Of a DNA stretch of 64,000 nucleotides, positions 1,909-54,975 are shown in pieces. Source of the stretch: an uncultured delta proteobacterium (GTDB taxonomy: Bacteria > Myxococcota > Myxococcia > Myxococcales > Myxococcaceae); assembly GCA_963771175.1 (NCBI GenBank), contig CAVYSY010000054.1, forward strand, positions 1-64,000, read 5' to 3'. The translations under genes were made by a program, and so were the position numbers. How positions within the stretch are numbered: position 1 is the stretch's first letter; each line of letters begins with the position of its first letter. The notes beneath the pieces are model-generated. The model had not been told where the DNA came from. It saw only the letters and a list, made by a program, of their open reading frames with translations, and ran no database searches.

Positions 1909-4900
1909 ATGAGGGCTGGAACCTACCACGTCACGGAAACCCTCCATGAGGGGGAGCGCAGCAGACTCTACCGGGCTCTCCGGGGCGCGGAGGGCCTGCC
2001 TGTCATCCTCAAGGTGCTCGGCCCCCGGCGCCCCAGCCCCCACGAGCTCGAGGGCCAACGGCGGGAGCTCTCCTTTGGCCGGAGCCTCGACACGCCCGCC
2101 GTGGTGAAGCCCCTCGGATTGGATGCCTTCCACGGGCAGCCGTGCCTCGTCCTGGAAGACACGGGCGCCGTCTCGCTCGCCCATGTCCTGGACGGGGCCC
2201 TGCCGGTCGGCCGCTTCCTCCCCCTGGCGCTCGGCATCGCCCGGGCGCTCGCCGAGCTCCACCACCACCACGTCATCCACAAGGACATCAAGCCCGAGAA
2301 CATCCTCGTCCACCCCAACACCGGCCAGGTGCAGCTCACGGACCTGGGCATCGCCACGCATCCTGCCCCGCGAGCACCAGGCCGTGCAGGGCCCACGCCT
2401 CATCGAGGGCACGCTCGCCTACATGTCCCCCGAGCAGACGGGGCGGATGAACCGGGTGCTCGACCTCCGGACGGATCTCTACTCGCTGGGCGTCACCTGC
2501 TACCAGATGCTGACGGGCCGGCTGCCCTTCCTGCGCGACGGACCCCCTCGAGTGGATGCACTGCCACATCGCCCGCACGCCGCCCCCGCTGCGCGAGCTC
2601 GCCCCGGAGGTGCCGGAGGTCCTCGAGGCCATCGTCACCCGGCTCCTGGCCAAGGTGGCCGAGGAGCGCTACCAGAGCGCGCAGGGGCTCGTGCATGACC
2701 TGGAGCGCTGTCTGGAGCAGTGGACGGCGCGGGGGCGCATCGACGCCTTTCCCCTCGGCACCGGGACGTCTCCGAGCGCTTCCAGATACCGCAGAAGCTC
2801 TACGGCCGCGAGCGCGAGATGCGCCCTGCTGCTGCACGAGTTCGAGCAACTCGTGGCGCGGGGCGAGCCTCGGCTGGTGCTCGTCTCCGGGTACTCGGGG
2901 ATCGGCAAGTCCTCGCTGGTGCACGAGCTGCACAAGCCGGTGCTCGCGACGCGAGGCTTCTTCCTCTCCGGGAAGTTCGACCAGTACAAGCGAGACATTC
3001 CCTACGCCACCGTCGTCCAGGCCTTCCAGGGGCTGGTGCAGGAGCTGCTGGCGGGCACCGAGGAGCAGCTCGCCGCCTGGAGGCAGCGGTTGCTGGCGGG
3101 GTTGGGCGCCAACGGTCAGCTCATCATCGACGTCATCCCCGAGGTGGAGCTCATCCTCGGCCGGCAGCCGCCGGTGCCGGAGCTGCCCGCCGCCCAGGCG
3201 GAGAGCCGCTTCCTCAACGTCTTCAGTCAGTTCATCCAGGTGCTCGCGCGCCGCGAGCACCCCCTGGTGCTCTTCCTGGACGACTTGCAGTGGGCGGACG
3301 CGGCGAGCCTCAAGCTGCTGCGCTACGTGCTGACGCAGCCGGAGACGGGCTACCTGCTGGCCCTGGGCGCCTACCGGGACAACGAGGTGAGTCCCTCCCA
3401 TCCGCTGCCGCGCATGGTGGAGGAGGTGCGCAAGGCCGGCACCGCCGTGCGAGACGTCGTCCTGTCGCTGCTCTCACCCCAGCACGTGGCGCAGCTCGTG
3501 GCGGACACCCTGCACGCCTCGCCCGAGGCCGTCCACCCCCTGGCCCGCCGGCTCCACCAGAAGACGGCGGGCAATCCCTTCTTCGCCATTCAATTCCTCA
3601 CCATGCTCTACGAGGAGGGGCTCGTCTGGTTCGACGCGGGGGCTCGCGCCTGGCGGTGGGACGTGCAGGGCATCGACGCCAAGGGCTTCACGGACAACGT
3701 GGTGGAGCTGATGGTGGACAAGCTCAAACGGCTGCCACCGGGGACGCAGGAGGTGCTGGAGCGGGCCGCGTGTGTGGGCAACGTCGTGGACTTCCACACG
3801 CTGGCGGTGGTGTGCGACCAGGAGGAAGCGCGCGTCCACGCGCACCTGTGGCACGCGGTGAAGGAGGGGCTGGTGCTGCGCGCGGGCACGCGCTACCGCT
3901 TCCTGCATGACAGGGTGCAGCAGGCGGCCTACCTCCTCATCCCCGAGCCCCAGCGCGAGCGGGTGCACCTGAAGATTGGGCGGCTCCTCCTCTCGCGCAC
4001 GCCTCCCGAGGCCCTGGAGGAGCGCCTCTTCGACATCGTCAACCAGCTCAACCTGGGGGCCTCGTTGCTGACCGAGGCGTCGGCGCGGACGGAGCTGGCG
4101 GAGCTGGACTTGAGGGCGGCGCGCCGGGCGAAGGCCTCCACGGCCTACGCCGCGGCCTCGAGCTACCTGGCGGTGGGCATGGCCCTGCTGGGGCCCGGGT
4201 GCTGGGAGGAGCACCCCACGCTGGCCTTCGCCCTGCACCGTGAGCGCGCCGAGTGCGAGTTCCTCCTGGGGGGCCTGGAGGAGACGGAGCGCCTCTTCCC
4301 AGTGCTGCTGCGCCACGCGCCCAGCCGCGTGGACAAGGCCGGCGTCTACCGCCTCAAGGTGGACTTCCACGTGACGCGCTCGGAGAACGCGCTGGCCGTG
4401 CAGAGCGCCTTGGAGTGTCTGGCGCTGTTTGGCATCGACATGCCGGCCCACCCCACCTGGGAGCAGGTGGAGTACGAGTATGAGCGCTTCTGTCTGGGCT
4501 TGGGCGGGCGCTCCCTGGAGGCGCTGGTGGAGCTGCCTCTCATGAAGGACGAGGACATTCGGGCGGCCATGGGAGTGCTGGGGGTGCTGTTCGCTCCCGC
4601 CTATTTCACCGACAAGAACCTGCTCTACCTGCACCTGTGCCACATGATGAACCTGAGCCTGAGGTACGGCAACACGGATGCCTCGGCGCACGGCTATGCG
4701 TGGTTCGGCACGCTGCTGGGGCCCGGCTTCCACCGCTACCGGGACGGCTACCGCCTGGGCCGGGTGGCCCAGGAGCTCGTCGAGCGGCATGGCTGGCTGG
4801 GCTACCGGGGGAAGGCCTTCTTCTCGCTGGAGATGCTGGCCTTCTGGAACGAGTCCGTCTCGGCCGCCGTCGACCACTGCCGGGCCGCCTTCGAGGGCAG

Positions 4901-48387: not shown

Positions 48388-49110
48388 ATGTCCCGCTTCC
48401 GTCTCTCGCAGAGCGATGCCGTCGAGTGGCTCCGCGCCCTGCCGTCCGCATCGGTGGACCTCGTCATCACCGACCCCGCCTACGAATCGCTCGAGAAGCA
48501 CCGCGCCATCGGCACCACGACGCGCCTCAAGCACAGCAAGGCGTCGAGCAACCACTGGTTTCAAATCTTCCCCAACGCGCGCTTCCCCGAGCTGTTCTCG
48601 GAAATCTGGCGGGTGCTGAAGCGGGACGCGCACTTCTACCTGTTCTGCGATCCCGAGACGATGTTCGTCGCGAAGCCGCTCGCGGAGGCGGCGGGCTTCC
48701 GGTTCTGGAAGCCCCTCGTCTGGGACAAGCAGCACATCGGCATGGGCTACCACTACCGCTCCCGCTACGAGTTCATCCTCTTCTTCGAGAAGGGCCGGCG
48801 GCGGTTGAGCGACCTGGGCGTGGCGGACGTGCTCCCGGTGCCACGCGTGTACCGGGGCTATCCGGCGGAGAAGCCCACGGGGCTGAGCGAGGTGCTCATC
48901 CGGCAGAGCAGCGAGCCCGGCGACGTGGTGGTGGACCCATTCCTGGGCTCGGGCTCGGTGGGCGTGGCGGCGGTGCGGCTCGGGCGGGACTTCCGGGGCA
49001 CCGACATCTGTGACGAGGCGCTGGCGGTCTCCGAGGCGCGGCTGCGCGCCGAGGGCGCGGTGCCGGAGGAGGCGGAGGAGACGCGAGTGCGCATGGCCCG
49101 GAGCGGGTGA
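48388..49110 (+). CDS. N4-cytosine/N6-adenine DNA methyltransferase (beta-class motif order)
   Basis: VDLVITDPAY catalytic motif precedes YPAEKP and DPFLGSGS SAM motif. Confidence 0.9.
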   Translation: MSRFRLSQSDAVEWLRALPSASVDLVITDPAYESLEKHRAIGTTTRLKHSKASSNHWFQIFPNARFPELFSEIWRVLKRDAHFYLFCDPETMFVAKPLAEAAGFRFWKPLVWDKQHIGMGYHYRSRYEFILFFEKGRRRLSDLGVADVLPVPRVYRGYPAEKPTGLSEVLIRQSSEPGDVVVDPFLGSGSVGVAAVRLGRDFRGTDICDEALAVSEARLRAEGAVPEEAEETRVRMARSG

Positions 49111-49598
49111 GGGGGAACGAGAGCCGGACGCAGGAGGCGCGGATGACTGGACACGAATACGCGGAGCTGGTGGCCAGATACATCGTGAAGAACTTCGCCT
49201 CGCGCGGGGTGAAGGTGTACCGCGAGGTGAACGTCGGCAAGACGCTCACCGGGAAGGGGCGGCGCGTCGACGTCTTCGTGCTCGAGCCCACCACGGGCAC
49301 GGCGCTCGCCATCGAGTGCAAGTACCAGGGAAGCGTCGGCACCGTGGACGAGAAGATTCCCTTCGCCCTGCAGGACCTGGAGAGCATGCGGATTCCGGTG
49401 TGCGTCGCCTACGCCGGAGACGGCTTCTCCCAGGGCATCCTCCACATCCTCTCCGCGTCGCCCATCGCCACCTACTGCCTGCCTGGGGCGAAGACGCTCG
49501 CGCCCTCCCAGGAGACTCGCGAGCTGGACTGCCTCCTGGCCATGACCTTCAAGTGGTGGGACGTGCTCGTGCGCGGCAAGAAGCGTGTAGCGCTGTGA
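49107..49598 (+). CDS. PD-(D/E)XK nuclease superfamily protein
   Basis: E...RRVDVF...IECKYQ motif; GTGA overlap with the methyltransferase stop (alternative ATG at 49143). Confidence 0.82.
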   Translation: MRGNESRTQEARMTGHEYAELVARYIVKNFASRGVKVYREVNVGKTLTGKGRRVDVFVLEPTTGTALAIECKYQGSVGTVDEKIPFALQDLESMRIPVCVAYAGDGFSQGILHILSASPIATYCLPGAKTLAPSQETRELDCLLAMTFKWWDVLVRGKKRVAL

Positions 49599-49622: not shown

Positions 49623-50456
49623 TCACGGCTGGGAGAAGCCCCGCGCTGGCATCGCGGGAGAGCGGTGCAGCCAGTTGTCCTCGGGGTAGCGGGCGGTGCC
49701 GTCGATGAGGTGGACCGCGTAGGCGTGGCGGCTCTTGGGTGAGGTATTGGCGCCGCTCTTGTGGGGCAGCAACCCGTGGAGCACGACCAGGGAGCCCTTC
49801 TTCACCTCCAACGGCACCATGCCCTCCTCGGGCAGGGGCGTGGGGTCCAGCACCTGGAACGCCGTGCCGCCTCCCGGGGCGCGGACGAAGCGCTTCTTCA
49901 GGCCCAGCGTGTGCCCGCCGGGCAGCGCCCACAGGCACCCGTTCTCCAGCGTCGCGTCCTCCAGGGCGAACCAGAAGCCCATGCAGGTCGGCGGCTCCGT
50001 GTACAGGAACGTCGAGTCCTGGTGGCTGTTGACCTCGCCGCCGATGAAGGGCTGCTTGAAGATGTACATCGACTGGATCAGCAGCGGCTGCTTCATGCCC
50101 AGCTCCGCGGCCAGGGCCGCCAGCTCGGGCGTGCGGGAGAACCGGTCGAAGACGGGGTCCAGGTCGTGCAGCGCGTGGCCGATCTTGTTGATCGACAGCG
50201 CCTTGTCCTGGCGCAGCGAGCCGTCCGGCTTGAAGGCGTTCTCCTCGAAGAAGAACCGGAGCTGATCCCCCGAGGACAGGAAGTACTCGTCCGAGGTCCG
50301 GGTCTGCTCGTGCGTGGTGAAGATGGAGACCGTCTCCGGCTGGAAGTCGGCCACCAGCTCCTCGGCCCGGGCCTTCAACGCATCGCAGGAGGCCGCCGGG
50401 ACGAACCCGGGCAGTACGAGGAACCCCTGTCGCGAGAACTCTTCGGCACGATTCAT
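49623..50456 (-). CDS. Phytanoyl-CoA dioxygenase (PhyH) family Fe(II)/2OG dioxygenase
   Basis: QSMYIFKQP, HQD, NGCLW and H.S..N.S..SR motifs; alternative start at 50468. Confidence 0.92.
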   Translation of the reverse strand: MNRAEEFSRQGFLVLPGFVPAASCDALKARAEELVADFQPETVSIFTTHEQTRTSDEYFLSSGDQLRFFFEENAFKPDGSLRQDKALSINKIGHALHDLDPVFDRFSRTPELAALAAELGMKQPLLIQSMYIFKQPFIGGEVNSHQDSTFLYTEPPTCMGFWFALEDATLENGCLWALPGGHTLGLKKRFVRAPGGGTAFQVLDPTPLPEEGMVPLEVKKGSLVVLHGLLPHKSGANTSPKSRHAYAVHLIDGTARYPEDNWLHRSPAMPARGFSQP

Positions 50457-50517
50457 GTCCGCTCCCATGCGCGGCTGCGACCGGCAGCCTATTCGAGCGG
50501 GCGGGGACTGCGAAGAG

Positions 50518-50588
50518 CGCTCCTGCTGGGAATCGAACCCAGTTCACACGGTAGACGGCCGTGCTGCGATCCAATCGCATCCAGGAGC
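50518..50588 (-). tRNA. Non-canonical tRNA-Asp(GTC)-like RNA
   Basis: Minus strand GCTCCTG GA TGCG ATTGGAT CGCA G CACGG CCGTCTA CCGTG TGAA CTGGG TTCGATT CCCAG CAGGAGC G. All four stems pair perfectly and G73 is present, but it has G8, C33, T37 and no encoded CCA. Confidence 0.75.
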
Positions 50589-50600
50589 TTGTGCTGCGAG

Positions 50601-50673
50601 TACCCCGTACGGGAGTCGAACCCGTCTTTCCGCGGTGAGAGTGCGGTGTCCTTCGCCGATAGACGAACGGGGC
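50601..50673 (-). tRNA. tRNA-Glu(CTC), no encoded CCA
   Basis: Minus strand GCCCCGT TC GTCT ATCGGCGAAGGAC A CCGCA CTCTCAC CGCGG AAAG ACGGG TTCGACT CCCGT ACGGGGT A; cloverleaf with one A.C mismatch at 31-39. Confidence 0.85.
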
Positions 50674-50690
50674 AGGAAGTCGGGACCCGG

Positions 50691-50733
50691 AAAAGCAAGA
50701 GGCCGGGTCCCTTCTTGGGAGCCCGGCCTCTGA
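50691..50733 (-). terminator. Intrinsic terminator/attenuator hairpin upstream of the tRNAs
   Basis: Minus strand AGAGGCCGGG(C)TCCC-AAGAA-GGGACCCGGCCTCT followed by TGCTTTT. Confidence 0.8.
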
Positions 50734-50770
50734 GTCCCGTGCCTCGTCATGGGACGAGGACGCGGAAGGT

Positions 50771-50920
50771 TCAGAATCCGGGCGGTTGGCCGCCAGTCAG
50801 CTCGAGGCCGAGCAGGAGGTCCAGAGCGGTATCCAGGCCGGTACGCGAGAGCGCGTCGATGCCAGTATCAGTGTCGTTCAGGGACTCGAGGTTCATCGGG
50901 CTCTGCTTCGTCACCGTCAT
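50771..50920 (-). CDS. 49-aa putative leader (attenuator) peptide MTVTKQSPMNLESLNDTDTGIDALSRTGLDTALDLLLGLELTGGQPPGF
   Basis: Strong RBS GAAAGGAG 8 nt before the ATG; ends 37 nt before the terminator; its last codons are complementary to the terminator 5' arm. Confidence 0.72.
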   Translation of the reverse strand: MTVTKQSPMNLESLNDTDTGIDALSRTGLDTALDLLLGLELTGGQPPGF

Positions 50921-51027
50921 GGTCACCGCTCCTTTCATCGAGAAAAGACGTGGCTGGAATCCATTCCTGACAACGCACCGCGCGGCTCGACAAGTGCCCG
51001 GCGCGTGAGCGCCAAGGATGCGTGAGG

Positions 51028-51645
51028 CTAACCGAGGTCTTTCTGTCGGACCCCGAGCCCCGCGGCGATGCCCGGCACGGCAAGGCGTCGGAAGAGCTCG
51101 TCCACCTCCGCGGGGGGTCGTGGGTTGGGGCTATCCAGCCACCAGATGAGGAGGCCGAGGAACGCGCCCACCACGAAGTGGACCACGCCCTCGAAGGCGC
51201 CACCCGGTGCCCTGCTGTCCGGTGGGGCGAGCGAGGCGAGATCGTCCCGTGTGAGCTGGGTGACCAGCCGGCGCATCTTGTTCTGCAGCGCCGCACCGCT
51301 CTCCCGGCCCACCATGGCCTGGTAGAGGTGGCGATGCGAGTGGGCATGCTCGAAGAGGGCCAGTCCGAAGTCGAGCCGGCCTGAGTCCGTCCCCTTGCGT
51401 CCTCCGCGCGCCGCTCGCCGCTGCGCGACAATGGCGCTCTTGAGCTCGTCGAAGCCGCTTACCAGCAGCTCCTCCTTGTCGGAGAAGTGGGCGTAGAAGG
51501 TGGACCGCCCCACGTTGGCCCGGTCGGTGATGTCCTGCACCGTCACCGCCTCGTAGCCCTTCTCCAGGATGAGCTCCACGAGCGCATGCCTCAGGAGCTG
51601 CCGCGTCCGTTGGACTCGTCGATCCTCGCGCTTCTCCTCCGCCAT
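51028..51645 (-). CDS. TetR/AcrR family transcriptional regulator
   Basis: DRRVQRTRQLL...VTVQDITDRANVGRSTFYAHF. Confidence 0.95.
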   Translation of the reverse strand: MAEEKREDRRVQRTRQLLRHALVELILEKGYEAVTVQDITDRANVGRSTFYAHFSDKEELLVSGFDELKSAIVAQRRAARGGRKGTDSGRLDFGLALFEHAHSHRHLYQAMVGRESGAALQNKMRRLVTQLTRDDLASLAPPDSRAPGGAFEGVVHFVVGAFLGLLIWWLDSPNPRPPAEVDELFRRLAVPGIAAGLGVRQKDLG

Positions 51646-51761
51646 CGAGCACCTCGCAATCCGGAACAAATCCCCCTGCGTGTCCCGAAACACACAGGCT
51701 CCGCGGGGCCGTTCATTGTGAAGACCGGCCGCGGCTCGCATTCTGAACAAAGAAGCCATTA

Positions 51762-51778
51762 CTGGACAAGGTGTCCAG
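51762..51778. promoter_or_regulatory. Probable TetR operator
   Basis: Perfect palindrome CTGGACA-N3-TGTCCAG between divergent tetR and ABC genes. Confidence 0.6.
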
Positions 51779-51797
51779 CATTCAGGGAGAGCCGCGA

Positions 51798-52574
51798 ATG
51801 TCGAACGAGTCCTCATCACCCGCCGCCCCGCTCGGCGGGGAGCCCCTCATCCGGGTCCGGGGCGTGGTCAAGACGTACCGCACCCCAGCGGGCCCCTTCC
51901 CCGCGCTGCGAGGGGTGAGCTTCGAGGTGAGCCAGGGCGAGATGGTGGCGGTGGTGGGCAAGTCCGGCAGCGGCAAGTCGACGCTCCTCCACCTGATGAG
52001 CGGAATCGACCACCCCTCGGCGGGAGAGGTTCACGTGGCCGGGACGCCCGTGCACTCCCTGTCCGAGGGGCGCCTGGCCCGCTGGCGCGGGCGCAATGTG
52101 GGCGTCGTGTTCCAGTTCTTCCAACTGCTGCCCACCCTGACGGTGGCCGAGAACGTCATGCTGCCGATGGACTTCTGTTCCACGTTCCCGGCGAGGGAGC
52201 GCCGCGCCCGGGCACTCGCCCTGCTCGAGCAGGTGGGCATCGCGGAGCAGGCGGACAAGCTGCCCTCGGCGCTCTCGGGCGGGCAGCAGCAGCGGGCGGC
52301 GATCGCTCGGGCGCTGGCCAACGACCCGCCGCTCCTCGTGGCCGACGAGCCCACCGGCAACCTGGACTCCAGCACCACCGAGGCCGTGTTGCAGCTCTTC
52401 ACCGAGCTCTCTCGCCGCGGCAAGACCGTGGTCATCGTCACCCACGAGCGCGAGGTCGCTCGCGTCTTCGACCGGGTGCTGACGCTGGCGGATGGGGTGC
52501 TCGTCTCGGAAGCCCCTGGACAGCGCCGGGCCCGGGCCGGGGTGCTCGCCGAGGTGGCCCATGGCCAGGCCTAG
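51798..52574 (+). CDS. ABC transporter ATP-binding protein (LolD/MacB type)
   Basis: [26 protein letters not shown] and VTH motifs. Confidence 0.95.
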
Positions 52575-54975
52575 GTGGCGAAAGCTGTGGCGCGACCTGT
52601 GGATGGAGCGTGGGCGCGCGGCGCTGATGGTGGTGGCGGTCGCGGTGAGCCTGCTGGGCATCGGGGCGGTGCTGGGGGCCTACGCCATCCTCTCGCGCGA
52701 GATGGCGGGCAACTATCTGGGCACCCGTCCCGCCTCGGCCACGCTCGAGCTGGATGCCGTGGACCGCGCGCTGGTGGAGGAGGTGCGCCAGCGTCCGGGA
52801 GTGCTCGAGGCCGAGGCGCGCAAGACGCTCCTGGCCCGGGTGAAGGTGGGGGCGGATTGGATGCCCCTCCTGCTGTTCGTTATCGACGACCTCGACTTCC
52901 CGAGACTCAACCGCTTCCGGCTCGAAGACGGCGCCTGGCCCCCGCCGGAGGGCACCCTGCTCATCGAGCGCACCGCCCAGCGCGTGCTCCAGGCCGGACC
53001 GGGCCAGTCCATTCGCGTGAAGGCGCCTGCTGGACAGGCTCGGGAGATGACCATCCGCGGCCTGGTGCACGACCCGAGCCTCTCGCCCGCCTGGCAGGAG
53101 CGAGAGGGCTACGGTTACATCACCCGGGAGACCCTCGCGTGGCTCGGTGAGGCGCCGGTGCTGGATGAGCTCCGGGTGGAGCTCGCGGCGGCCAGGGAGC
53201 CCCTGGAGGCCCCCGCGGTCGATGCTGCTGCTCGCGAGCTGGGCGCCTGGCTCCAGCAGCGCGGGTATGGCGTGCATCATATCGAGGTGCCGCCCCCGCG
53301 CAGGCACCCCCATCAGACCCAGATGATGGCCGTCCTCTTCATGATGCTCGCCTTCAGTGGGATGGCCCTCGTCCTGAGCGCCATCCTGGTGGCCACGACG
53401 CTCGCCGGCATCCTGGCCCGACAGGTGCGCGAGATAGGCGTGATGAAGGCCGTGGGCGCGGGCACCGGGCAGATCGCCGGTCTGTATGCGGTGATGACGC
53501 TCCTGCTCGGGAGCGGCTCGACCTTGCTGGCGGTGCCTCCGAGCATCTTCGCCGCACGGGCCTTGTCCCACATGGTCGCGCGGATGCTGAACCTCGAGCT
53601 CGTCAGTGAGGCGATTCCCGGCTGGGTCCTCGCGCTGCAGGTGGCCGCTGGCGTGCTGGTCCCCCTGGTGGTTGCGGCCATCCCCCTCCTCCGGGGCAGC
53701 CGCGTGAGCGTGCGGCAGGCCCTTGATGACCACGGCATCACTCAGGAGACGCCGGGCGCGCGCGAGCCCTCCGGGGTGCTCCGCGTCCTGGGCGGGCTCG
53801 ACCGGATGCTCCTGCTGGCGCTTCGCAACACCTCGAGGCGGCGCGGGCGCCTCGTGCTGACCGTAGGGCTCCTGGCGGCCGGAGGCGGGATGTTCATGAT
53901 GGCCCTCAACGTGATGGAGGGATGGGAGCGCTATGTCGGGGAGGTGCCCCGGACGCGCCACTACGACGTGGAACTGCGCTTCGGGCAGCCCCAGCCGACA
54001 GCGCGCATCGTGAGCCTGCTTCAAGGCGTCCAGGGAGTCCGGTCCGTGGAGGCCTGGGGCTACCTTCCGACGGCCTTCTCGAAGCCGGCTCTCCTCGACG
54101 TGAGCCGCGTGTACCCGGACGGCGGCCACGGCGGCTTCATCCTCCGCGCTCCGCCGGCGGAGACCTCCCTCGTTCGGTTCCCGCTCAGGTCCGGGCGCTG
54201 GCTCGCGACGGGTGACGTGGATGCGGTGGTGCTCAACCACATGGCGCTCGTGCAGGCGCCTCACGTCCAGGTGGGTGACAGGGTCTCCTTGTCCGTGGAG
54301 GGCAAGCCGACGGTGTGGCAGGTGGTCGGCATCGTGGAGGAGGTCGGGTCGCCCGCGACGGCCTACGTGACGGACGAGGCGCTGGCCCGCGTCGCCGGCA
54401 CGGTGGGGCGCACTCAGTCGGTGCGGCTCGCCACGACGACGGCGGACCCAGGTGTTCGGGAGGAGGTCCTCCGCGCGGTCGAGCGCACGCTGGAGCAGGC
54501 CAACGTGGGCGTCGAAGTGGCCATTCCGCTGTCCGAGTTGCGCACCGCCGTGGGGGACCACGTCCTCGTCCTCGTTCGGATGCTCATCGCGATGGCCGTG
54601 CTCATGGCGACGGTCGGTGCCATCGGGCTCACGTCGGCCATGGGCATGAGCGTGCTGGAGCGGACACGGGAGCTGGGGGTGATGCAGGCCATTGGCGCGA
54701 CACCGGGCGTGGTGCTGCGGCTCATCGTCACCGAGGGCGTCTTCGTCGGCGCGTTGAGTTGGGGGGCGGCCCTGCTCCTCTCGGTGCCACTGACAGCGCT
54801 CGTCGGCAGCATCGTGGGCACGCTCGCCTTCAGGCTTCCGCTTCCCCTCGTGCTGTCTCCGTGGGCGATGCTGCTGTGGCTCGCCCTGGTGCTGGTGGGG
54901 TCCATGGGGGCCACGGCGCTGCCCGCCTGGCGTGCCTCGAGGCTGACCGTTCGCGAGGCCCTCGCGCAGGTCTGA
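52561..54975 (+). CDS. ABC transporter permease (FtsX/MacB-like, duplicated)
   Basis: Two repeats ([11 protein letters not shown] and [11 protein letters not shown]) with large periplasmic loops. Confidence 0.92.

Follow-up and report, generated by a model that had tools for sequence, protein, structure and literature searches.

A probable leader-peptide attenuator ahead of small arrays of atypical tRNA genes in Archangium-type myxobacteria

What is a short reading frame followed by a transcription terminator doing directly in front of two tRNA genes? The question is raised by the minus strand of a stretch of 64,000 nucleotides (nt) from an uncultured delta proteobacterium of the Myxococcaceae (GenBank assembly GCA_963771175.1, contig CAVYSY010000054.1, positions 1 to 64,000), referred to below, at its full length, as the window. 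A sequence-only reading of this DNA had proposed a leader-peptide attenuator that switches on a pair of spare tRNAs when translation stalls. Folding, comparison with relatives and codon statistics lead us to conclude that the element is probably a ribosome-mediated (leader-peptide) transcription attenuator gating a small operon of supernumerary, atypical tRNA genes. Most likely the switch turns these tRNAs on, in Archangium-type myxobacteria, when ribosomes slow at the codons that the tRNAs decode.

Anatomy of the module and its alternative folds

Every part that the sequence-only reading had listed was recovered at its place on the minus strand, to which all module coordinates given here refer. 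The module begins with a promoter-like box, TTGTCAGG-n15-CGTC (50947..50973), of which TGTCAGGA and CGTC are invariant in the alignment of relatives. The Shine-Dalgarno sequence GAAAGGAG (50929..50936) lies 8 nt before the ATG of the leader open reading frame (ORF), which comprises 49 codons plus TGA (MTVTKQSPMNLESLNDTDTGIDALSRTGLDTALDLLLGLELTGGQPPGF; 50771..50920, with ATG at 50920 and TGA at 50773-50771) and whose product has the C-terminus GGQPPGF. Codons 33-41, CTG GAC CTC CTG CTC GGC CTC GAG CTG (LDLLLGLEL; 50798..50824), stand out in the codon list and in run statistics and are the candidate regulatory codons. Folding places the last 13 bases of the ORF, stop codon included (50783-50771), opposite TCAGAGGCCGGGC (50733-50721) in an antiterminator hairpin spanning 50721..50783. 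The pairing at 12 of 13 positions that had been noticed in the letters holds good, as 11 Watson-Crick pairs and one G.U pair, the remaining position being an A.G mismatch. Within this hairpin is an inner stem (50767-50735), the tip of which is the small hairpin CCTCGTC-CCAT-GACGAGG (50759-50742); its position had been given correctly, but it is part of the antiterminator and not the separate element for which it had been taken.

The intrinsic terminator, also placed by folding, has the form GAGGCCGGG-C-TCCC / AAGAA / GGGA-CCCGGCCTC followed by TTGCTTTT (50691..50730), with its 5' arm at 50730-50717, the loop AAGAA, its 3' arm at 50711-50699 and the tail TTGCTTTT at 50698-50691. Immediately beyond it is CCGGGTCCC (50682..50690), the complement of GGGACCCGG (50711-50703) in the terminator 3' arm, for which CGGGAC (50739-50734) is an alternative partner. 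Two tRNA genes called by ARAGORN complete the module: a 74-nt tRNA-Glu(CTC) with an A31.C39 mismatch (50600..50673; 47.1 bits with the Rfam tRNA model) and a 72-nt tRNA-Asp(GTC) with G8, C33 and U37 (50517..50588; 39.2 bits, with lax filters), neither of which encodes its CCA end.

These parts suggest a simple mode of action. Transcription would start at the TTGTCAGG-n15-CGTC box and the 49-codon leader would be translated. The last 13 leader bases, including the stop codon, would form the 5' strand of the antiterminator and the terminator 5' arm its 3' strand. A ribosome reaching the end of the ORF promptly would cover the former strand, allowing the terminator to form and RNA polymerase to stop at about 50691, some 18 nt before tRNA-Glu. 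With a late ribosome, the antiterminator would form first and transcription would continue into the tRNAs, the freed 3' arm then pairing with CCGGGTCCC just downstream. Lateness could arise from generally impaired initiation or elongation, or from a stall within the run of codons 33-41. The result would be a supply-and-demand feedback in which poor decoding of the codons served by the five tRNA types found in the arrays yields more of the tRNAs that decode them. If no ribosome were present, the antiterminator would be expected by default.

The arrangement is not confined to the window. Relatives of the leader ORF number 31 small predicted proteins, all in Archangium/Cystobacter-like genomes or unnamed metagenome records. 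A scan with the leader alignment, taking one genome per species, gave 12 loci (nine Archangium, one Vitiosangium, one Cystobacter fuscus and one Corallococcus interemptor), denoted L001 to L012 where they need to be told apart. Three of these belong to complete genomes: L001 to Archangium gephyra SDU49 (NZ_CP102578.1), L005 to A. minus Cbm 6 (NZ_CP043494.1) and L011 to Cystobacter fuscus Cbf 10 (NZ_CP043491.1). The module occurs twice in two of them (L002 and L010, copies a and b), so that with the window there are 15 modules at 13 places. With the exception of L002b, the modules share one order of parts: the TTGTCAGG-n15-CGTC box, AAAGGAGCGGT and ATG, an ORF of 41-52 codons, the hairpin and the terminator. 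The combination of leader, hairpin and tRNAs, for which a search of myxobacterial genomes had been suggested, is thus a recurrent one: module and tRNA array occur together in 14 of the 15 copies, in several contexts, the tRNA genes starting 16-118 nt past the stop codon. The 14 arrays contain two to seven tRNAs each and 54 in total, and the Glu and Asp pair of the window is a short form of what is typically a five-gene array.

Structure in this region is well above that of shuffled sequence. The segment 50800-50674 folds at -65.1 kcal/mol (z -4.79) and the antiterminator hairpin, taken as 50786-50717, at -40.3 kcal/mol (z -5.05); in each case none of 200 shuffled sequences folds as well. The terminator hairpin alone has -28.6 kcal/mol. 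It is present in 14 of the 15 modules, being missing in L002b, with 96.7% of its alignment cells paired; its tail has five or six T in eight positions in 13 of these 14 modules and three in eight in L012.

Whole-leader folds that stop before the terminator 3' arm give the antiterminator, in which 6-13 pairs join the end of the ORF (its last 16 bases) to the 5' arm of the terminator. There are at least 9 such pairs in 13 of the 14 modules. When the 3' arm and T-tract are included and the leader end is left free, the local minimum-free-energy (MFE) structure is the antiterminator in seven modules and the terminator in the other seven, indicating that the two states are close in energy. Masking of 28 nt, to represent a ribosome at the stop codon, produces the terminator in all 14 folds, which is the outcome foreseen for a terminating ribosome that covers the antiterminator strand. 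RNAalifold applied to the 14 complete leaders returns a consensus in three parts, namely the antiterminator, a helix between GGGACCCGG and CCGGGTCCC, and a long-range helix between GAGCGGTG and TACCGCTC. The pairing of the freed 3' arm with CCGGGTCCC, another of the original suggestions, therefore belongs to the consensus structure of the read-through RNA; 96.8% of the cells of this helix are paired, and none of its pairs has changed on both sides. The alternative outer helix, in which CCGGGTCCC pairs with CGGGAC, appears in the MFE structure of 50800-50674. No anti-antiterminator of the trp 1:2 type was found, unmasked whole-leader folds still giving the antiterminator, and so the element should respond to general inhibition of translation as well as to specific stalls. 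The proposal that the end of the ORF is an antiterminator strand competing with a terminator ahead of the tRNAs survived every computational test run.

The leader reading frame and its codons

Conservation among the relatives begins abruptly at the promoter-like box. The pattern TGTCAGG-n15-CGTC matches once in the window, where 0.15 matches would be expected by chance, and each of the other 14 modules has it at the corresponding position, which makes 15 out of 15. A scan for sigma-70 promoters between 50300 and 51300 gave no sites, and the box is not sigma-70-like. It resembles the promoter signature of ECF41 sigma factors, given as -35 TGTCACA, a spacer of n16(+/-1) and -10 CGTC (PMC3426412), in five of the seven bases of the -35 element and in the shared CGTC, its own spacer being 15. 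This likeness between motifs is a lead only; an ECF41-type promoter would add a layer of control by a stress sigma factor. In the window, genes for a TetR-family regulator (minus strand) and, divergent from it, for an ATP-binding cassette (ABC) ATPase and an 827-amino-acid FtsX-type permease (a MacB-like exporter) lie directly upstream of the box (51028-54975).

The ORF itself looks translated. Its Shine-Dalgarno sequence AAAGGAGCGGT is identical in all 15 modules, each of which has this ribosome-binding site and an ATG. All six insertions or deletions within the ORF are multiples of three (3, 3, 3, 6, 9 and 27 bases), as against one of the 13 between the stop codon and the tRNA, a pattern showing that the frame is kept open. 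What is conserved within that frame is a different matter. Variable sites are spread over codon positions 1, 2 and 3 as 16, 12 and 15 of 39, and the ratio of non-synonymous to synonymous change per site (pN/pS) averages 0.84 over all pairs. Synonymous change per site (pS) is 0.11 in the leader and 0.29 in the neighbouring FecCD gene, so that the synonymous sites of the leader are about 2.5 times more conserved, and the non-coding stretch from the ORF down to the tRNA is 88% identical. Low pS combined with a pN/pS of about 0.8 means that the constraint acts on the RNA, with both the frame and the place of the stop codon preserved, as predicted for a regulatory leader ORF and not for a functional micropeptide. 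That ratio and the similar numbers of changes at the three codon positions argue against a peptide selected for its own sake, the amino-acid sequence showing no clear sign of purifying selection. The end of the ORF, CCG CCC GGA CTC TGA, is almost invariant at the level of bases, the rare GGA codon included, and without exception the stop codon falls within the antiterminator strand.

These observations bear on a more prosaic explanation of the locus, that an ordinary small-protein gene with its own terminator happens to precede tRNA genes with constitutive expression, which would come from leaky read-through or an unrecognised promoter; the complementarity would then be a by-product of GC-rich sequence. 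Several genomes do have the ORF annotated as a hypothetical protein, and similarity in the N-terminal half extends recognisably to Corallococcus (59% identity); in addition, the terminator is the thermodynamic ground state in the window, and L002b works without one. A pN/pS of about 0.8 with changes even over codon positions is nevertheless not what a protein gene should give, nor are synonymous sites so much more conserved than those next door, and a by-product of base composition accounts neither for the z of -5.05 of the antiterminator nor for the near invariance of the last codons in their bases. As for a separate promoter, the sigma-70 scan of 50300-51300 found no promoter-like site, and the gap from the T-tract to the first tRNA is only about 17-45 nt in 13 of the 14 arrays, which leaves too little room for internal promoters. 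We consider this explanation unlikely.

If the constraint is on the RNA, reading by ribosomes might be dispensable. The element could be a structured non-coding RNA, either a switch governed by a protein or ligand or an element for the processing or stability of the tRNA precursor, and the terminated leader might even act in trans as a small RNA, attenuator-derived RNAs with such activity being known in Sinorhizobium (PMC6614838). Besides the nucleotide-level constraint, two structural features fit this idea: the outer helix encloses the terminator and T-tract, and the long-range helix hides the Shine-Dalgarno region. In the latter, bases 50931-50924 (GAGCGGTG) can pair with 50831-50824 (TACCGCTC, in codons 30-33), each pair being formed in 10-14 of the 14 sequences, and the helix explains the conservation of a rare GCT codon. 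An RNA that ribosomes do not read has, on the other hand, no need of frame-preserving changes (six of six, against one of 13 downstream), of an invariant ribosome-binding site and ATG, or of a stop codon fixed within the antiterminator strand. Nor does the leader belong to a recognised class of regulatory RNA: only tRNA models of Rfam match, no T-box being found at E values up to 10 in 50300-51300 or at the gathering score in the whole window, and the specifier loop and T-box antiterminator of T-box riboswitches are not seen by the Rfam model. There is accordingly only a slim chance that ribosomes play no part in the switch. Enrichment of the leader in rare codons was also considered and dropped, as it has no significance when the whole set of 32 rare codons is considered (p 0.02-0.67 per module).

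For the attenuator reading, the codons upstream of the antiterminator strand are of particular interest. The five Asp and two Glu (both GAG) codons that had been counted in the window leader are there, and their agreement with the two downstream anticodons had been put down as a possible coincidence. The agreement is much stronger than was realised. Every codon from 33 to 41 matches, by Watson-Crick pairing, one of the five anticodons found in the arrays, all five anticodons are represented, and these are exactly the five tRNA types carried by the relatives. Between the end of the run and the start of the antiterminator strand there are 14 nt, a geometry like that of classical attenuators. As background, 94 long ORFs with high GC content at third codon positions were collected from the window and the loci (39,262 codons). 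The cognate set of the five anticodons makes up 25.5% of these codons, the five ranking 2, 3, 6, 7 and 9 in usage. No background run exceeds eight, a length seen once, and among 20,000 random background stretches of 49 codons there is none with a run of nine, nor any with 11 cognate codons out of 12. The longest run in the leader is 12 in L005, nine in the window, L006, L008 and L011, eight in L009, seven in L001 and L002a, six in L003 and five in L010a and L010b. Runs of at least seven (7-12) are thus present in eight of the 14 tRNA-linked modules.

Whether the composition of the leader follows the make-up of the array was also considered, but the evidence is anecdotal: L004, which is without tRNA-Glu, has K where other leaders have E, and L005 has extra Leu codons, while L011 has Leu tRNAs only and yet keeps D, E and G codons in its leader.

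One detail of the sequence-only reading has to be changed. The PPG motif near the end of the leader had been pointed out as an EF-P-dependent pause motif. It lies inside the 5' strand of the antiterminator, so that a ribosome pausing there would mask the strand and favour termination instead of read-through, and it is replaced by QPG or LPG in four of the 15 leaders (L007, L010a, L010b and L012). We do not think that a proline pause is the inducing stall.

The tRNA arrays and their surroundings

The 54 array tRNAs have only five anticodons: Glu-CTC (10 copies), Asp-GTC (9), Gly-GCC (12), Leu-GAG (10) and Leu-CAG (13). All can be folded into cloverleaves, with scores of 39-63 bits against the Rfam tRNA model, and default filters miss the Asp copies. 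A compensatory change in the anticodon stem of the Asp tRNA of L007 supports the maintenance of tRNA structure. They are far from ordinary in detail. All of the Asp (9/9), Gly (12/12) and Leu-GAG (10/10) copies have C33, where U33 is near-universal elsewhere. The tRNA-Asp has in addition G8 and U37, the Rfam tRNA consensus being U8, U33 and A37, and position 37 of tRNA-Glu is A, C or U depending on the species. Bacterial tRNA-Leu is a class II tRNA with a long variable arm; both Leu types of the arrays are 76 nt in length and lack this arm (e.g. L006 4499-4672). The canonical set of elongator features, U33, a purine at 37 and a long variable arm in tRNA-Leu, is thus not seen in these tRNAs. 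None of them encodes CCA, and nearly every 3' trailer starts with TCGCAG (or TTCGCAG or ACGCA), as at 50599-50589 and 50516-50505 in the window, a feature suggestive of a common signal for processing.

Either tRNA-Asp or tRNA-Glu is missing entirely from some arrays. The genomes concerned must hold other genes for these anticodons, and from this we infer that the array copies are supernumerary, or spare. Arrays also gain, lose and erode members quickly. Between the tRNA-Glu and tRNA-Gly of the first L010 array there is a tRNA-Asp copy, not called by ARAGORN, whose D-arm is damaged (L010 1953-2045). In L002b (L002 3995-4232, Archangium violaceum Cb vi76), the hairpin, the terminator and tRNA-Glu have been deleted and tRNA-Asp stands 16 nt past the leader stop, making this module a natural 'constitutive' variant. 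What follows the fifteenth module, that of Corallococcus (L012), is a degenerate element resembling a tRNA, with the anticodon CCA and a score of 23.6 bits, below threshold. The leader of this module has one TGG codon; this coincidence was counted as evidence neither for nor against. The L012 peptide has a single other relative, in C. exiguus. After the L012 module come a gene for an HNH endonuclease (L012 4364-4903) and one for a 940-amino-acid protein in which ClpB-like AAA+ domains are joined to a peptide-chain-release-factor (PCRF) domain (L012 4998-7817), an unusual translation-related fusion.

The collections of phages and plasmids gave generic tRNA-level matches only, covering no more than 12% of the query. 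The closest phage-collection match to the array Leu tRNAs is a 79-nt tRNA-Leu(cag) from the tRNA cluster of the Sinorhizobium jumbo phage Phosso (L013 1503-1581), to which the 76-nt tRNA-Leu(CAG) is 78.9% identical over 75 nt; tRNA-Gln genes of mycobacteriophages also match, at about 80%.

The surroundings of the module vary. In most Archangium genomes, although not in the window, the array is set in a B12-uptake neighbourhood, with BtuF-like (Peripla_BP_2)/FecCD transporter genes upstream of the module and a cobalamin riboswitch downstream. Such a riboswitch (87-95 bits) lies shortly downstream of the array in seven of the 12 loci (L001 5714-5934, L002 4365-4585, L003 6094-6314, L007 4515-4730, L008 4715-4934, L009 4716-4935 and L010 5574-5793). 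Other contexts are TetR and PhyH genes in the window, GH97 and DUF3089 in C. fuscus, and LanC-like genes in L007. The window PhyH-family Fe(II)/2-oxoglutarate dioxygenase gene (49623-50468, minus strand) starts about 50 nt past tRNA-Asp on the same strand. No obvious terminator separates the two, and in this genome alone the gene may share a transcript with the tRNAs. Beyond the gene, at 48388-49598 on the plus strand, a gene for an N6/N4 DNA methyltransferase overlaps by 4 nt one for a PD-(D/E)XK (PDDEXK_11) nuclease; together they are probably a type II restriction-modification pair. Upstream of the L007 module are two LanC-like genes (L007 3-1073, minus strand, and 2515-3807, plus strand) and a luciferase-like monooxygenase gene, which are absent at the other 12 places.

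The leader product might, alternatively, be the substrate or partner of a tRNA-dependent pathway, for example a precursor like those of ribosomally synthesised and post-translationally modified peptides (RiPPs), modified by means of aminoacyl-tRNAs that a dedicated array would supply. Conserved N-terminal and variable C-terminal parts of the peptide, the presence of tRNA-Glu and the LanC-like genes of L007 would suit such a precursor. Among the 71 proteins encoded in the flanks of the 13 places, however, neither a constant protein-gene neighbour nor a RiPP cluster was found, and no enzyme gene is conserved beside the module, LanC-like genes occurring at only one place in 13. A pN/pS of about 0.8 is again out of keeping with a selected precursor, and the terminator and antiterminator would be left unexplained. 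This is a very improbable account. The want of a constant protein neighbour indicates, instead, that the leader and its tRNA array behave as one unit.

Weight of the evidence and relation to known systems

Several findings weigh against the attenuator reading. A scan for consensus terminators gave no sites on the minus strand and so did not flag the terminator, most likely because of the bulged C in its stem. For the window's own sequence, the terminator is preferred thermodynamically even when the leader end is free, and when the mask is placed to represent a stall of the ribosome farther upstream, only five of 14 modules have the antiterminator as their MFE structure. The decision would therefore have to be kinetic, as in known attenuators, and equilibrium folding was set aside as a test of the upstream-stalled ribosome. 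Compensatory changes had been named as a check, and the most informative variation is a single alignment column that changes in step at three sites in L003 (leader T>C, CTC>CCC; 5' arm A>G, GAG>GGG; 3' arm T>C, CTC>CCT); L011 has the first two of these changes, in the leader and the 5' arm, and L002a is a G.U intermediate. Statistical covariation, in contrast, is not significant: the three tested structures have 92.6%, 91.1% and 96.8% of their cells paired with only one or two pairs changed on both sides, shuffle controls are not exceeded for the counts of pairs or of types, and the RNAalifold covariation term is +0.13. As the sequences come from close relatives and are too alike, covariation was rejected as proof of either helix. 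The run of cognate codons is weak or absent in L004 (longest run 4), L002b (3), L007 (2) and L012 (1), and since all modules are homologous it counts as one evolutionary observation. L002b keeps its ORF and tRNAs despite having lost the hairpin and terminator. Finally, the array tRNAs depart so far from near-universal tRNA features that their role in translation is only putative.

With these points taken into account, a translated leader attenuating the tRNAs still seems the probable explanation, and its closest models are familiar. Classical leader-peptide attenuators, such as trpL, leuL, hisL, thrL and pheL (for pheL, PMC3082878), control amino-acid operons. The present element resembles them in having a short ORF that is translated, regulatory codons in a run that stops a few codons short of the antiterminator strand, hairpins that exclude one another, and a T-tract. 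In terms of the features by which attenuators are recognised, the modules have a maintained ORF with ribosome-binding site and start codon, a terminator, an exclusive antiterminator that a ribosome masks, and codons related to the product. Unlike the classical examples, the element would regulate tRNAs and not biosynthetic enzymes, its regulatory codons are of five types for four amino acids and match the tRNAs produced, and its leader is long at 49 codons. It also lacks the 1:2 anti-antiterminator of the trp type, so that the absence of translation should give read-through and not super-attenuation.

Control of the translation apparatus by such means has a precedent in the pheM leader of the E. 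coli pheST operon, which is said to attenuate an aminoacyl-tRNA synthetase in response to a single amino acid. In both cases a gene of the translation apparatus would be attenuated according to the decoding of cognate codons in a leader peptide, with a synthetase as the target of pheM and tRNA genes as that of the module. Attenuators or upstream ORFs at which stalled ribosomes report translation inhibitors have been described for the tylosin-induced yxjB of Bacillus subtilis (PMC6851288) and for topAI of E. coli (PMC12121999). As in the myxobacterial element, the default state of those systems depends on a ribosome clearing the leader, and slow or stalled ribosomes switch the downstream genes on; they differ in controlling resistance or toxin-antitoxin genes, without a correspondence between codons and product in the accounts consulted.

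The nearest functional relative appears to be the tRNA L-array (trn operon) of Anabaena sp. PCC 7120, a normally silent operon of supernumerary tRNAs that is induced when translation is impaired; it has 23 functional tRNAs, and its control has been attributed to direct repeats in the promoter and a putative repressor (PMC8421152). The words or word stems 'attenuat', 'terminator' and 'leader' do not occur in the available text of that report. The myxobacterial arrays are smaller, with two to seven tRNAs of five types, and have an attenuator as the candidate control element. L-arrays, a class of tRNA array unit, have been defined by at least 20 tRNA genes at a density of at least two per kb (PMC4758250); the present arrays fall below this size, whereas their density is sufficient, for example five tRNAs in 429 nt in L006. 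Phages, too, carry compact arrays of tRNAs with altered anticodon loops (PMC10264068; compare Phosso above), and non-canonical tRNA features are common to both. The arrays described here differ from these phage examples in being chromosomal, host-encoded and placed behind a regulatory leader, and resistance to nucleases is for them only hypothetical.

A literature search for tRNA genes, whether arrays, clusters or operons, controlled by an attenuator or leader found no relevant description. Textbook control of tRNA genes is exerted at promoters, through growth rate and the stringent response, and leader-peptide attenuation is known for amino-acid biosynthesis and for a few genes of the translation apparatus or of resistance.

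Tentatively, the module may be taken one step further, as a self-contained back-up circuit for tRNAs. The leader would serve to test the decoding of five codons that are among the nine in heaviest use in the genome; depletion or disabling of the housekeeping tRNAs would stall the ribosome on it, and replacement tRNAs would be transcribed whose odd loops (C33, U37 and the variable 37) and truncated Leu forms make them poor substrates for the attacking enzymes. Possible triggers are anticodon nucleases or other tRNA-targeting toxins released by competitors, prophage defences and phages. We regard this extension as possible but doubtful; if correct, the circuit would be for bacteria what nuclease-evading tRNAs are for phages, with codon-specific attenuation as its control. 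It would be useful to learn what purpose is served by C33 and by Leu tRNAs with a short arm, whether and with which amino acid these tRNAs are charged, and whether they protect against tRNA-targeting toxins.

For the Archangium-type myxobacteria, which are culturable and non-pathogenic inhabitants of soil, an attenuator with stall codons that correspond to the anticodons of its own target tRNAs would couple tRNA supply directly to decoding capacity in a feedback loop. Such an attenuator would constitute a second, mechanistically different route to an inducible reserve set of tRNAs, after the promoter-controlled array of Anabaena, and would provide a compact natural sensor of codon-specific translation speed.

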